Positions 1,009-42,179 of a stretch of 42,179 nt of DNA are shown here, piece after piece; within the stretch, counting starts at the first letter, position 1; each line of letters begins with the position of its first letter. The DNA lies in the IMG/VR virus record IMGVR_UViG_2778261252_000010, positions 1 through 42,179 of that record, one strand, 5' to 3'. The stretch is from a virus (Duplodnaviria > Heunggongvirae > Uroviricota > Caudoviricetes). Position numbers and translations under genes: made by a program. The notes below the pieces were generated by a model. It saw only the letters and a program-made list of their open reading frames with translations, ran no database searches and was not told the DNA's origin.

Positions 1009-1083
1009 GTCCTCTTAGTTAAATGGATATAACGAGCCCCTCCTAAGGGCTAATTGCAGGTTCGATTCCTGCAGGGGACACCA
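1009..1083 (+). tRNA. argW: tRNA-Arg (anticodon CCU)
   Basis: 75 nt folding as a cloverleaf: acceptor GTCCTCT/AGGGGAC, anticodon stem AGCCC/GGGCT with loop CTCCTAA (anticodon CCT), T-arm GCAGG-TTCGATT-CCTGC, 3' ACCA. Confidence 0.85.
1069..1083. repeat. attL core: 15-bp CTGCAGGGGACACCA at the tRNA 3' end, repeated at 40854..40868
   Basis: Exact 15-bp direct repeat at both prophage borders; the left copy is the 3' terminus of argW. Confidence 0.7.
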
Positions 1084-1199
1084 TTTATCAGTTCGCTCCC
1101 ATCCGTACTAGTCCGCAAAATCCCCTGCATATCAAGCCTTCCGTAGATTCACAGTTCGGCATGGTTCGCGTCAGATCGTTGACAGCCGCACACCATGAC

Positions 1200-1244
1200 G
1201 GGTAAAAAGTGGATAAAATAATTTTACCCACCGGATTTTTACCC
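1200..1244. promoter_or_regulatory. Cluster of GGGTAAAA-type repeats in both orientations directly upstream of intS (putative integrase/excisionase binding sites overlapping the intS promoter)
   Basis: GGGTAAAAA, GGATAAAAT, TTTTACCC and TTTTTACCC within 45 bp ending at the intS ATG; the same motif recurs at the torI end (40775..40795). Confidence 0.4.
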
Positions 1245-2399
1245 ATGCTCACCGTTAAGCAGATTGAAGCAGCAAAGCCGAAAGAAAAACCATACCGCCT
1301 TCTCGATGGTAATGGCCTGTACCTTTATGTCCCTGTGTCAGGGAAAAAGGTATGGCAGCTTCGCTACAAGATTGACGGTAAGGAGAAAATCCTGACCGTA
1401 GGAAAATATCCGCTAATGACTTTGCAGGAGGCAAGAGATAAAGCATGGACCGCGAGGAAAGACATCTCGGTTGGCATCGATCCGGTAAAAGCGAAAAAGG
1501 CTTCGTCTAACAACAATTCCTTTAGTGCAATTTACAAGGAATGGTACGAGCACAAGAAGCAAGTATGGTCAGTAGGCTATGCAACTGAGCTTGCCAAAAT
1601 GTTTGATGACGACATTTTACCCATCATCGGCGGTCTTGAGATTCAGGATATTGAGCCGATGCAACTGCTGGAAGTAATCCGCAGATTTGAAGATCGCGGT
1701 GCAATGGAACGAGCCAACAAAGCCCGCAGAAGATGCGGCGAGGTTTTCCGTTACGCTATTGTCACCGGAAGGGCTAAATATAACCCGGCACCTGACCTTG
1801 CAGACGCCATGAAAGGATACCGCAAGAAGAACTTCCCGTTTCTTCCAGCAGACCAGATCCCTGCATTCAACAAAGCACTGGCAACATTTTCAGGAAGTAT
1901 CGTATCGCTCATTGCGACCAAAGTTTTACGCTACACAGCCCTAAGAACGAAAGAGCTTCGCTCCATGCAATGGAAGAACGTCGATTTTGAAAACAGGATT
2001 ATCACCATCGACGCCAGTGTGATGAAGGGACGCAAAATTCATGTGGTCCCGATGTCAGACCAGGTGGTTGAACTTCTCACTACGCTAAGCTCAATCACTA
2101 AACCAGTATCAGAGTATGTTTTTGCCGGGCGCAACGATAAGAAGAAGCCAATTTGCGAGAACGCTGTACTACTTGTGATCAAACAAATCGGATATGAGGG
2201 TCTGGAAAGCGGACACGGATTCAGGCATGAATTCAGCACGATTATGAACGAGCACGAATGGCCTGCTGACGCGATTGAGGTTCAACTGGCGCATGCCAAC
2301 GGTGGATCTGTGCGCGGGATTTACAACCATGCTCAGTATCTGGATAAGCGCAGAGAAATGATGCAGTGGTGGGCTGATTTCATTGACGGAAAAGCATGA
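1245..2399 (+). CDS. intS: Tyrosine recombinase / prophage integrase (P4-like family)
   Basis: ORF next to the tRNA; N-terminus MLTVKQIEAAKP typical of P4-family integrases; C-terminal catalytic region with R..H..R..Y-type residues; start taken at the second Met (1245) of the 1209..2399 ORF. Confidence 0.8.
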   Translation: MLTVKQIEAAKPKEKPYRLLDGNGLYLYVPVSGKKVWQLRYKIDGKEKILTVGKYPLMTLQEARDKAWTARKDISVGIDPVKAKKASSNNNSFSAIYKEWYEHKKQVWSVGYATELAKMFDDDILPIIGGLEIQDIEPMQLLEVIRRFEDRGAMERANKARRRCGEVFRYAIVTGRAKYNPAPDLADAMKGYRKKNFPFLPADQIPAFNKALATFSGSIVSLIATKVLRYTALRTKELRSMQWKNVDFENRIITIDASVMKGRKIHVVPMSDQVVELLTTLSSITKPVSEYVFAGRNDKKKPICENAVLLVIKQIGYEGLESGHGFRHEFSTIMNEHEWPADAIEVQLAHANGGSVRGIYNHAQYLDKRREMMQWWADFIDGKA

Positions 2400-5425: not shown

Positions 5426-5487
5426 GTTGGTTTTTCTCCACGGATTTACCGACAACCGAAGCCCTGACTGTTACCGCAGTTGGGGCT

Positions 5488-5670
5488 TCACTGTTTTATG
5501 TTCACATCTAACATTGTTTTTCTAGAATTTAACTCTTTCCCCATCGCTTCAACGCAAAGAGATACACAACCACTACAGATAAATATCTCTGCTTTAGCGC
5601 GAATCAACATTGCACATTCATGCTGAGGCTTTCCGCAGAAGGAGCACTTAAAGCCATCTTCTTTATTCAT
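5488..5670 (-). CDS. 60-aa protein resembling the ClpX N-terminal C4 zinc-binding domain
   Basis: KCSFCGKPQHECAMLI...ICSGCVSLC aligns with ClpX YCSFCGKSQHEVRKLI...ICDECVDLC (same Cys spacing); start ATG overlaps the arc stop (ATGA) and is preceded by a GAGGG ribosome-binding site. Confidence 0.6.
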   Translation of the reverse strand: MNKEDGFKCSFCGKPQHECAMLIRAKAEIFICSGCVSLCVEAMGKELNSRKTMLDVNIKQ

Positions 5671-21623: not shown

Positions 21624-21866
21624 TCAATAATGTGGGAATTGACTACTATTTTGCAAGATAACCCAAGATGGGCGAAACAAGTCAAAAACATTGATGCTTA
21701 ACAGGGCTTCATTTATTGATTTTTTTTCATCCATAGAAACTCCGCGTCCTGCTTTTGACATTACAAGCTGACCATTAACTATTTCACTACATTGTTTTAC
21801 ATAACTACCTTGCGGTATTGATTGAAAGTTACATGTACCATTTATTATTTTATCAATTTCACTCAT
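21624..21866 (-). CDS. Hypothetical small protein, AT-rich (moron-like)
   Basis: 80-aa ORF with GAGG ribosome-binding site; markedly lower GC than its neighbours. Confidence 0.45.
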   Translation of the reverse strand: MSEIDKIINGTCNFQSIPQGSYVKQCSEIVNGQLVMSKAGRGVSMDEKKSINEALLSINVFDLFRPSWVILQNSSQFPHY

Positions 21867-22160
21867 ATCAACCTCGTCTAGTTGTTCGTCATAGATTCAG
21901 TGGCTGGCGGTGACGATTCCGCTTTTCGGGAGCTACCCTAGCCACTGTTTTATTCTATCCGATGTCTTTCCATCAGTCCGCCACCACAAAGAATCTTTTT
22001 TGCCATAAGGCAGGAGGTTCATCTTTCAGTGGCTGCCAGTGTTATTTCCCCACTTACTGGCTTGGGTTGTTTCGCGGTACTGCCGTAACTGGTTGCCCAG
22101 AATAAATTCCGGTTTCATTATCAAGCCCACCCGTAGATAGGCTTTGTAATGACTACATGG

Positions 22161-40354: not shown

Positions 40355-40522
40355 ATGCACTTCCGAGTCACAGGTGAATGGAATGGAGAGCCATTCGACA
40401 GGGTTATCGAAGCAGAGGACATCAACGACTGCTATAACCACTGGATGATATGGGCGCAGATAGCACATGCAGACGTAACCAATATTCGAATTGAAGAACT
40501 GAAAGAACACCAATCCGCCTGA
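40355..40522 (+). CDS. Small hypothetical protein (55 aa)
   Basis: Below the ORF-track cutoff; GGAGA ribosome-binding site; stop codon sits inside the following terminator hairpin. Confidence 0.5.
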   Translation: MHFRVTGEWNGEPFDRVIEAEDINDCYNHWMIWAQIAHADVTNIRIEELKEHQSA

Positions 40523-40536
40523 TGGCGGTTTTTTAT
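40515..40536 (+). terminator. Intrinsic terminator
   Basis: CCGCC-tgat-GGCGG hairpin followed by TTTTTTATT. Confidence 0.65.
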
Positions 40537-40544
40537 TACCTGAT

Positions 40545-40560
40545 TTGCAGGTTCGATTCC
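40545..40560. repeat. 16-bp TTGCAGGTTCGATTCC, an exact copy of the argW T-arm segment at 1054..1069
   Basis: Exact 16-bp match to the part of the tRNA just 5' of the att core; lies 19 bp upstream of torI. Confidence 0.7.
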
Positions 40561-40579
40561 CTATTCGGAGATAGCACTC

Positions 40580-40780
40580 ATGCAACACGAACTACAGCCT
40601 GATTCACTGGTTGATTTGAAATTCATCATGGCCGATACTGGCTTCGGTAAAACCTTCATCTATGACCGGATTAAGTCCGGGGACCTGCCTAAAGCCAAAG
40701 TTATCCACGGGCGAGCAAGATGGTTATATCGTGACCATTGTGAATTCAAAAATAAGCTCTTAAGCCGCGCCAATGGGTAA
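40580..40780 (+). CDS. torI: Excisionase / recombination directionality factor TorI
   Basis: 66 aa (MQHELQPDSLVDLKFIMADTGFGKTFIYDRI...), matches KplE1 TorI as remembered; winged-helix Xis/AlpA-like; sits at the prophage end opposite intS. Confidence 0.8.
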   Translation: MQHELQPDSLVDLKFIMADTGFGKTFIYDRIKSGDLPKAKVIHGRARWLYRDHCEFKNKLLSRANG

Positions 40781-40795
40781 AATAGCGGGTAAAAT
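40775..40795 (+). promoter_or_regulatory. Two direct GGGTAAAAT repeats overlapping the torI stop (putative recombination-protein binding sites in the attR arm)
   Basis: GGGTAAAAT at 40775 and 40787, 12 bp apart; same motif as the cluster upstream of intS. Confidence 0.4.
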
Positions 40796-40853
40796 TTTAT
40801 TCACATCTAAAAAACACCATTCCAATCAATCCCCTGCCGATTCAAGTAGATGT

Positions 40854-40868
40854 CTGCAGGGGACACCA
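40854..40868. repeat. attR core CTGCAGGGGACACCA
   Basis: Exact copy of the 15 nt at the argW 3' end (1069..1083). Confidence 0.7.
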
Positions 40869-41309
40869 GATACCCTTCAAACGAAATCTACCTTCACCCC
40901 GTAAAAGATGGGTTTGGCAGCACACTTGCCTTATATCTACTCATTTTTACTGCAACAGGTTGAAATCTCAGCACTGTCAGAAAGCGCTGATGACTAAACA
41001 GCCCTGGGCCGGGCGATGTAACCATCACACAGAATCCTGATAGCGAAATATGGCGTGACTCGATACTTCACTCCGCAATGCATTCCTTGATGAATTCGCA
41101 GGACCGTGATACACGGGACAGGTCACTGAATGACGACAATGTCCTGGAAATCAGCGAACCGCGCATCTGAAGTACATTTGAGCGACTGTACCAGAACATG
41201 AATGAGGCGTTTGGATTAGGCGATTATTAGCAGGGCTAAGCATTTTACTATTATTATTTTCCGGTTGAGGGATATAGAGCTATCGACAACAACCGGAAAA
41301 AGTTTACGT

Positions 41310-42179
41310 CTATATTGCTGAAGGTACAGGCGTTTCCATAACTATTTGCTCGCGTTTTTTACTCAAGAAGAAAATGCCAAATAGCAACATCAGGCAGACA
41401 ATACCCGAAATTGCGAAGAAAACTGTCTGGTAGCCTGCGTGGTCAAAGAGTATCCCAGTCGGCGTTGAAAGCAGCACAATCCCAAGCGAACTGGCAATTT
41501 GAAAACCAATCAGAAAGATCGTCGACGACAGGCGCTTATCAAAATTTGCCACGCTGTATTTGAAGACGGATATGACACAAAGTGGAACCTCAATAGCATG
41601 TAACAGCTTCACTAATGAAATAATCCAGGGGTTAACGAACAGCGCGCAGGAAAGGATACGCAACGCCATAATCACAACACCGATAAGTAATGCATTTTTT
41701 GGCCCTACCCGATTCACAAAGAAAGGAATAATCGCCATGCATAGCGCTTCGAGTACCACCTGGAATGAGTTGAGATAACCATACAGGCGCGTTCCTACAT
41801 CGTGTGATTCGAATAAACCTGCATAAAAGACAGGAAAAAGTTGTTGATCAAAAATGTTATAGAAAGACCACGTCCCCACAATAAATATGACGAAAACCCA
41901 GAAGTTTCGATCCTTGAAAACTGCGATAAAATCCTCTTTTTTTACCCCTCCCGCATCCGCCGCTACGCACTGGTGATCCTTATCTTTAAAACACATGTTG
42001 ATCATCATAAATACAGCGCCAAATAGCGAGACCAACCAGAAGTTGATATGGGGACTGATACTAAAAAATATGCCGGCAAAGAACGCGCCAATAGCATAGC
42101 CAAAAGATCCCCAGGCGCGCGCTGTTCCATATTCGAAATGAAAATTTCGCGCCATTTTTTCGGTGAAGCTGTCAAGCAA
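41310..42179 (-). CDS. cscB: LacY-family oligosaccharide:H+ symporter, probably sucrose permease CscB (C-terminal 289 aa; N-terminus beyond the window)
   Basis: Strong LacY-like blocks (YNIFDQQLF, GTRLYGY, VNRVGPKNALLIG, KLLHAIEVPLCVISVFKY); csc genes are known to lie near argW in sucrose-positive E. coli; ORF runs to the window edge. Confidence 0.6.
   Translation of the reverse strand: MLDSFTEKMARNFHFEYGTARAWGSFGYAIGAFFAGIFFSISPHINFWLVSLFGAVFMMINMCFKDKDHQCVAADAGGVKKEDFIAVFKDRNFWVFVIFIVGTWSFYNIFDQQLFPVFYAGLFESHDVGTRLYGYLNSFQVVLEALCMAIIPFFVNRVGPKNALLIGVVIMALRILSCALFVNPWIISLVKLLHAIEVPLCVISVFKYSVANFDKRLSSTIFLIGFQIASSLGIVLLSTPTGILFDHAGYQTVFFAISGIVCLMLLFGIFFLSKKREQIVMETPVPSAI

Follow-up and report, generated by a model that had tools for sequence, protein, structure and literature searches.

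The short repeats GGGTAAAA that stand before intS and over the torI stop codon of this prophage are very probably the arm-type binding sites of its integrase, IntS, in a recombination module of the KplE1/HK620/Sf6 type carried by an HK620-like prophage in argW. We base this assignment on sequence comparison with published systems. The repeats themselves, their part in the intasome and their part as operator of the intS promoter (PintS) are already known, having been worked out in KplE1 of Escherichia coli K-12 between 2007 and 2010. The primary mapping of the KplE1 sites is reportedly that of Panis, Mejean and Ansaldi (J Biol Chem, 2007) and Panis and co-workers (Virology, 2010). The KplE1 module was characterised by Ansaldi's group, and the account used here is that of Panis et al., PLoS Genet 2010 (PMC2951348).

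The window, by which we mean the whole stretch of DNA that was analysed (42,179 nucleotides), opens within yfdC and then runs into argW of E. coli. Two copies of a 15-nt core, CTGCAGGGGACACCA, bound an element of 39.8 kb, and exact matches to this core occur in the whole window at 1069 and 40854 only. The structural genes of the element are about 96% identical to those of phage HK620, and a P22-type sar antisense RNA was found at 5426 to 5492 on the plus strand with a score above the Rfam gathering score. On the strength of these features we class the element as a full-length HK620/Sf6-like (P22-like) prophage inserted at argW. Its landmarks for recombination are as follows.

1009 to 1083, plus strand: argW, tRNA-Arg(CCU), the integration target (ARAGORN; Rfam tRNA).
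1069 to 1083, plus strand: attL core CTGCAGGGGACACCA, the strand-exchange site, an exact 15-nt repeat.
1245 to 2399, plus strand: intS, tyrosine integrase, identified by its Pfam domains, with its ATG at 1245 to 1247.
40580 to 40780, plus strand: torI, excisionase or recombination directionality factor (RDF), identified as an open reading frame and by tblastn identity.
40854 to 40868, plus strand: attR core CTGCAGGGGACACCA, an exact 15-nt repeat.

The integrase gene lies beside attL and points away from the tRNA gene, and torI lies at the opposite end and points toward attR. Insertion in argW, duplication of the core at both ends and the near-identity of intS, torI and both att arms place the element with the KplE1/HK620/Sf6 argW modules. 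From the -35 box of PintS to the ATG, attL is 100% identical to K-12 KplE1 and to the attP of HK620; the P-arm repeats at attR and their surroundings are identical to K-12. The core of K-12 has been given as CTGCAGGGGACACCAT (PMC2951348), and at the 16th base K-12 has T where this prophage has G. Beyond the attR core, the host sequence on the right (40869-42179) bears no relation to that of K-12, which runs on in the direction of dsdC, and it ends in a partial open reading frame for a 289-aa membrane protein (41310-42179, minus strand). Another Rfam match above the gathering score, the int-alpA RNA motif (21886-21948, minus strand), lies midway along the prophage, at a great distance from both intS and torI, and sits upstream of an 80-aa open reading frame (21624-21866, minus strand).

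The attL array, which reads gacGGGTAAAAagtGGATAAAAtaaTTTTACCCaccggatTTTTACCCATG from 1200 to 1244, is made up of two direct copies with an 11-bp step followed by two inverted copies with a 15-bp step, all inside 45 bp. The attR pair (40775-40794) reads aatGGGTAAAAtagcGGGTAAAAt. The individual sites are listed here.

1200 to 1207, plus strand: arm-type site 1, which is P'1, an exact GGGTAAAA overlapping the PintS -10 box (1203-1208).
1211 to 1218, plus strand: arm-type site 2, GGATAAAA, a degenerate copy with one mismatch (the site number is that of this analysis).
1222 to 1229, minus strand: arm-type site 3, an exact GGGTAAAA on the minus strand (TTTTACCC on the plus strand), in the intS 5' UTR.
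1237 to 1244, minus strand: arm-type site 4, again an exact GGGTAAAA on the minus strand (TTTTACCC on the plus strand), ending at position -1 of the intS ATG.
40775 to 40782, plus strand: first P-arm site, an exact GGGTAAAA with the torI stop TAA (40778-40780) inside it.
40787 to 40794, plus strand: second P-arm site, an exact GGGTAAAA that starts 12 bp after the start of the first.

A repeat search recovered the direct and inverted pairs of both arrays independently. The four attL sites are on the right-hand side of the attL core at a distance of about 131 bp, and the two attR sites on the left-hand side of the attR core at 68 to 80 bp. An earlier note on this DNA had described four motifs in both orientations within the 45 bp that end at the intS ATG, and two direct copies 12 bp apart over the torI stop. 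Both descriptions are accurate, the first group consisting of three exact GGGTAAAA copies and the near copy GGATAAAA. Its expression "symmetric placement" goes too far, given that the two arms carry four and two sites, at different distances and in different orientations.

Clustering on this scale is not expected from the composition of the DNA. The window holds eight exact copies of GGGTAAAA where 1.09 +/- 1.05 were expected, a count that none of 100 shuffles reached, and five of the eight fall in the two arrays. Four matches with at most one mismatch within 45 bp were seen in 0 of 300 first-order Markov simulations, the largest simulated cluster being three (8 of 300 runs). The other three exact copies are isolated, at 1615 (inside intS), 35590 and 41940. 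The one inside intS (1615-1622, minus strand) falls on codons for DILP, and the HK620 record marks the corresponding position as an attP repeat; the sequence there is TTTTACCT in K-12 and HK620. We considered this copy as a functional site and rejected it: no divergent relative has kept it at synonymous positions, and it is therefore probably fortuitous.

Arm-type sites of a heterobivalent integrase are short repeats, unrelated to the core, that are present in both att arms, and GGGTAAAA has these properties relative to CTGCAGGGGACACCA. The integrase itself fits: residues 2 to 86 of IntS match Pfam PF13356, Arm-DNA-bind_3 (E = 2.2e-25), and Phage_int_M and Phage_integrase were also found, so that the protein has a separate N-terminal arm DNA-binding domain. 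IntS is 98-99% identical to the Int proteins of HK620, Sf6 and CUS-3. Over residues 1-88 it matches the allele at loci L004/L005 at 100% identity, and the attL of these loci is identical to K-12 attL over the roughly 180 nt compared. In addition, the repeats belong to DNA that is known to recombine. The published in vitro attL substrate of 220 bp maps to 1049-1268 (primers at 1049-1069 and 1245-1268), and the left-edge primer of the published 135-bp attR substrate maps to 40757-40776 (PMC3509656). With substrate primers at 1049/1268 and 40757, all six arm-type GGGTAAAA copies lie inside the attL and attR substrates, at the outer edges of the recombining DNA.

At attL the array is interwoven with the promoter of the integrase gene, whose boxes are these.

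1179 to 1184, plus strand: PintS -35 box TTGACA (PMC2951348), invariant in 16 divergent relatives.
1203 to 1208, plus strand: PintS -10 box TAAAAA (given as TAaAAa in PMC2951348), separated from the -35 box by an 18-nt spacer and placed inside GGGTAAAA site 1.

A sigma-70 int promoter thus lies within attL, with an arm-type site on its -10 box and the TorI site I5, which ends at 1178, against its -35 box. Our promoter scan, which demands T at position 6 of the -10 box, missed PintS and returned a weaker ATGACG/AATAAT pair. In K-12, intS transcription starts 28-30 nt before the ATG according to primer extension (PMC2951348). Transferred by the TorI-site offset, the published start coordinates map to 1215/1216, and the stated bases (T, A) fit 1214/1215, an ambiguity of 1 nt; arm-type site 2 covers this start (~1214-1216). 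All IntS P' arm-type sites of K-12 contain TAAA, and P'1 overlaps the -10 box (PMC2951348). IntS represses PintS about 5-fold, as does TorI, and mutation of I4/I5 abolishes repression by TorI (PMC2951348). In reporter assays only P'1 relieved repression among the single P' mutations, P'1 being inseparable from the -10 box (PMC2951348). Autorepression has been described as keeping IntS in the narrow concentration range needed for efficient excision (PMC2951348). The coupling to integrase promoter control that the earlier note had proposed is right, and it is an already published conclusion, with IntS acting about 5-fold and TorI acting through I4/I5 (PMC2951348).

The closeness of these repeats to the sites of the excisionase raises another reading, in which the repeats would be bound by TorI, polymerising along DNA with a spacing close to one helical turn. 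By tblastn, TorI matches HK620 HkaC and Sf6 gp18 at 100% identity, and both of these have been stated to be 100% identical to K-12 TorI (PMC3509656). A Pfam search with the 66-aa protein gave no match at E <= 1e-3, and an Rfam search at E <= 10 around torI and attR gave nothing credible. RDF sites usually take the form of direct repeats spaced by roughly one helical turn, a pattern that the 11-12 bp steps within the direct pairs fit. The published mutagenesis, however, puts TorI on GTTCG/GATCG/GTCCG boxes between 1088 and 1178, not on the TAAA repeats, and K-12 TorI binds five such sites upstream of the -35 box (PMC2951348). We placed these sites on the window through the published MG1655 coordinates 2464409-2464436 and 2464472-2464499 with one constant offset (PMC2951348).

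1088 to 1115, plus strand: TorI sites I1 (1088-1095, tcaGTTCG) and I2 (1108-1115, ctaGTCCG), with 12 nt between them.
1151 to 1178, plus strand: TorI sites I3 (1151-1158), I4 (1161-1168) and I5 (1171-1178), of the GTTCG/GATCG form, with a 10-bp period.

Sites I3-I5 adjoin the -35 box, and relatives keep them as 10-bp-periodic repeats; the region of the TorI sites as a whole is near-identical to that of K-12, with few differences in spacer bases. The motif in the 8-bp TorI boxes is G(T/A)(T/C)CG, and GGGTAAAA does not contain it. The specific binding sites of TorI have been described on attL, as five cooperative sites, and none is mentioned for attR (PMC3509656). As shown below, the arm motif also changes among relatives independently of the class of RDF repeat. 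It is thus highly improbable that the GGGTAAAA copies are TorI sites. The earlier note had named the excisionase or the integrase arm domain as the ligand; it is the integrase arm that agrees with the TAAA-containing P' sites of K-12, and the excisionase part does not stand, its sites lying at 1088-1178.

Two further readings, together with the choice of IntS as ligand, were weighed by comparison with relatives. Int-proximal regions were compared in 30 Enterobacterales genomes whose Int proteins are 58-99% identical to IntS, and xis-attP-int regions in divergent phages and 87 viral contigs. A viral-contig scan with the Xis alignment returned only loci with 100%-identical TorI, and it was the Xis proteins of phiEt88 and g341c, used as queries, that gave diversity. 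Across Enterobacterales the layout is kept: int is preceded by two direct copies and two inverted ones, and xis is followed by a pair at 12 bp. In 16 divergent attL regions of the GGGTAAA class, the -35 box and the four sites are kept, each at a constant distance from the ATG, whereas the 18-nt spacer is scrambled. GGGTAAA of site 1 and TTTTACCC of site 4 are invariant in this set and site 3 is kept; site 2 reads GGGTAAA[A/T/G] or GAGTAAA, being variable at positions 2-3. The P arms are as regular: all 57 distinct P arms have two direct copies, 12 bp apart in 56, and the second copy starts 68 nt before the core TGCAGGGG in 53 of 56. Two loci depart from the usual number before int, L023 (Xenorhabdus hominickii) and L020, with only three arm-type copies each, and L023 also carries a tandem 9-nt unit, CCCTTAAAT, in at least eight copies, upstream of the excisionase-type repeats before int.

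The observation that separates the readings is a concerted change of motif. In lineages with a second type of Int arm domain, GGGCATA replaces GGGTAAA at all P' positions, and also at both P positions wherever a P arm was available, that is, in phages and viral contigs, the prophage loci of this class being without a P arm. These lineages include Tatumella punctata, several Enterobacter, Kluyvera, Pantoea, Erwinia phage phiEt88 and Salmonella phage g341c. The loci compared for the switch were L015, L026-L030, L034, L087, L088 and L169-L255, and the alternative motif can also read GGGCACA. The class of the motif follows about ten discriminating residues of the Int arm domain, for instance N23G, Q38R and T51V. 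Mosaic integrases make the same point, the Int of phiEt88 being 56% identical in residues 1-88 and 79% in the rest, and that of T. punctata 58% in the arm domain and 76% in the rest. The class of the RDF repeats (GTTCG, GTAACC/ATTACC, GTAAAC or GAACC) varies independently; g341c, for instance, pairs GTTCG-type RDF repeats with GGGCATA arm sites. Host genus does not determine the class either, and Erwinia, Pantoea and Tatumella each carry both GGGTAAA and GGGCATA. The motif therefore tracks the integrase arm domain, not the RDF or the host, and it is this concerted switch that favours binding by the integrase arm over sites for an excisionase, for a host factor or for the promoter alone.

The repeats could in principle be mere A/T-rich promoter and leader elements of intS, with the attR pair a coincidence. 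The attL copies do occupy suggestive places, as TAAAAA is contained in the first, the start of transcription falls within the second and the fourth adjoins the ATG. Against this, the same 8-mer occurs twice at attR, where the pair is outside any promoter; the GGG and CCC parts are conserved though a -10 box needs none; both arms switch jointly to GGGCATA; and clusters of the size observed were absent from the simulations. We regard this explanation as very unlikely. A third possibility is that a host architectural protein (IHF, Fis or similar) binds the repeats, since lambdoid att arms carry IHF and Fis sites and a primer adjoining the repeats was named attR-IHF2 (PMC3509656). The motif is, however, unlike the IHF consensus WATCAANNNNTTR, and although host factors vary little among Enterobacterales, the motif follows the phage Int arm within the same genera. 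A host protein as the cognate ligand is exceedingly improbable.

The inverted half of the attL array allows a role beyond protein binding, namely an RNA hairpin that would gate intS translation on transcripts entering from upstream. RNA covering 1185-1265 folds (-18.2 kcal/mol, z = -2.2) into a hairpin in which sites 1 and 4 pair with each other, as do sites 2 and 3, and which ends at position -1 of the AUG. The mRNA made from PintS begins at ~1214, is without the 5' arm and is unstructured (z = +0.9), so that structure in the PintS 5' UTR itself was rejected as a candidate. The potential to fold is nevertheless automatic in palindromic arrays of protein sites, so conservation cannot separate the two roles; in addition, the z-score is modest, and a transcript that reaches intS from upstream is putative here. 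That the array is at once a DNA arm array, the PintS operator and an RNA gate, acting on argW read-through in the prophage or on torI-attP-int transcripts of the circular phage, seems to us unlikely. Were it so, ribosome loading would be blocked except on PintS-started mRNA, giving a promoter-dependent gate with a logic like that of lambda sib.

With arm-type sites of IntS as the preferred reading, the module would work as follows. IntS would act as a heterobivalent protein, its N-terminal arm domain docking on the four P' copies at attL and the two P copies at attR and its C-terminal core-binding and catalytic domains holding the core sites. TorI polymerised on the GTTCG repeats I1-I5 would bend the attL DNA, and arm-bound and core-bound IntS would bridge to form the excisive intasome. 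IHF on attR is reported to assist the excisive complex. We infer that all six copies, four at attL and two at attR, are individually bound, the degenerate GGATAAAA being the case to which this caution applies most. Since the -10 box, the start of transcription and the intS leader all lie under the P' array, occupancy by IntS would repress its own promoter, and TorI at I4/I5, next to the -35 box, would repress PintS as well. The experimental basis for this scheme comes from K-12: P'1 on the -10 box, the shared TAAA, the TorI sites and the dual repression (PMC2951348), and recombination of the substrates (PMC3509656). For annotation, the KplE1-type module in the window is intact and belongs to a full-length HK620-like prophage, and for that reason the prophage should be excision-competent once TorI is made.

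The natural GGGTAAA to GGGCATA data set could also guide specificity engineering of P4-type (Arm-DNA-bind_3) integrases.

Several other elements were observed around torI and in the att arms. A 12-nt box, GGTTCGATTCCC, lies at 40550-40561, 18 nt upstream of the torI ATG and just past a terminator-like hairpin, and the T-arm/T-loop of argW (1059-1069) has the same sequence as the first 11 nt of the box. Of 53 distinct xis-upstream regions, 34 contain an exact copy of the core of the box, GTTCGATTCC, and 6 more a copy with one mismatch; 32 of the 34 exact copies stand at the same distance from the ATG, and the flanks are wholly different between lineages. The survey of this box also took in L085, L087, L088 and L169-L255. 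Several lineages have lost it, and Erwinia phage Midgardsormr38 has two tandem copies. Joined together, box and core equal the contiguous 3' half of the tRNA, and xis and the P arm separate the two parts. The box is unlikely to be an Xis operator, since phiEt88 keeps it despite a different excisionase repeat motif; a core-type Int site, a promoter element and a module boundary sequence are candidates. The records of HK620 and Sf6 label the region upstream of torI as a putative cII-dependent pI promoter, the TTGC repeats of which are not conserved.

The hairpin next to this box, CCGCCtgatGGCGG followed by a T run (40515-40535), resembles an intrinsic terminator and lies immediately upstream of torI, and comparable hairpins precede xis in many relatives. 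Their presence suggests that transcription gets as far as xis only when it is anti-terminated or reads through. The core motif GCAGGGGA also has inverted copies, TCCCCTGCA and TCCCCTGCC, one on each arm: the copy at 1121-1129 stands 42 nt right of the attL core, and the copy at 40830-40838 stands 12 nt left of the attR core. An 'atcccctg' block is present in the P arms of most relatives and in several P' arms. These inverted copies may be extra core-type or accessory sites.

The closest known system is KplE1 (CPS-53) of K-12, which has the same argW site, the same 15-nt core, the same TorI, the same IntS arm domain and the same overlap of promoter and operator. KplE1 is a defective remnant of 10.2 kb, whereas here the module flanks a full HK620-like prophage of 39.8 kb. 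The two differ by few substitutions, located between the TorI sites and just past the second P copy, and in the right host flank. In HK620 (AF335538) the same blocks are annotated as attP repeat regions, and they are identical at 1421-1443, 1631-1652 and 1652-1677 of L001. The TTGACA promoter is labelled 'prophage excision' in the 2001 GenBank record of HK620 and pX in that of Sf6 (AF547987). Both records describe a circular attP with xis, attP and int contiguous, whereas the prophage studied here has its att site divided between attL and attR.

A more distant parallel is phage P4, the Int of which is about 35% identical to IntS and the GenBank record of which annotates an 'attP arm sequence repeat'. 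The tRNA target of P4 is leuX, unlike argW. As summarised in PMC2951348 from the work of Piazzolla et al. on int autoregulation, the P4-type integrase occupies repeats that surround the start of its own transcript and represses int; the RDF lowers Int as well. The same summary has the P4 excisionase Vis proposed to act on mRNA and not on DNA (PMC2951348).

In phage lambda the logic is the same, with a short non-core repeat in both arms, an N-terminal arm domain, and bends by the RDF and IHF that bridge to the core. Ross and Landy (1982) reportedly described the lambda Int arm-type sites P1, P2 and P'1-P'3, the paradigm for heterobivalent integrases. The arm-type motif of lambda is C/AAGTCACTAT. 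The motif here is different, and the arm family is the Arm-DNA-bind_3 of P4-type integrases; unlike lambda, the present module has 2 + 4 sites with an inverted pair, and its RDF sites lie on the int-proximal arm. Finally, int here has its own promoter inside attL, whereas lambda int is co-transcribed with xis (PMC2951348).
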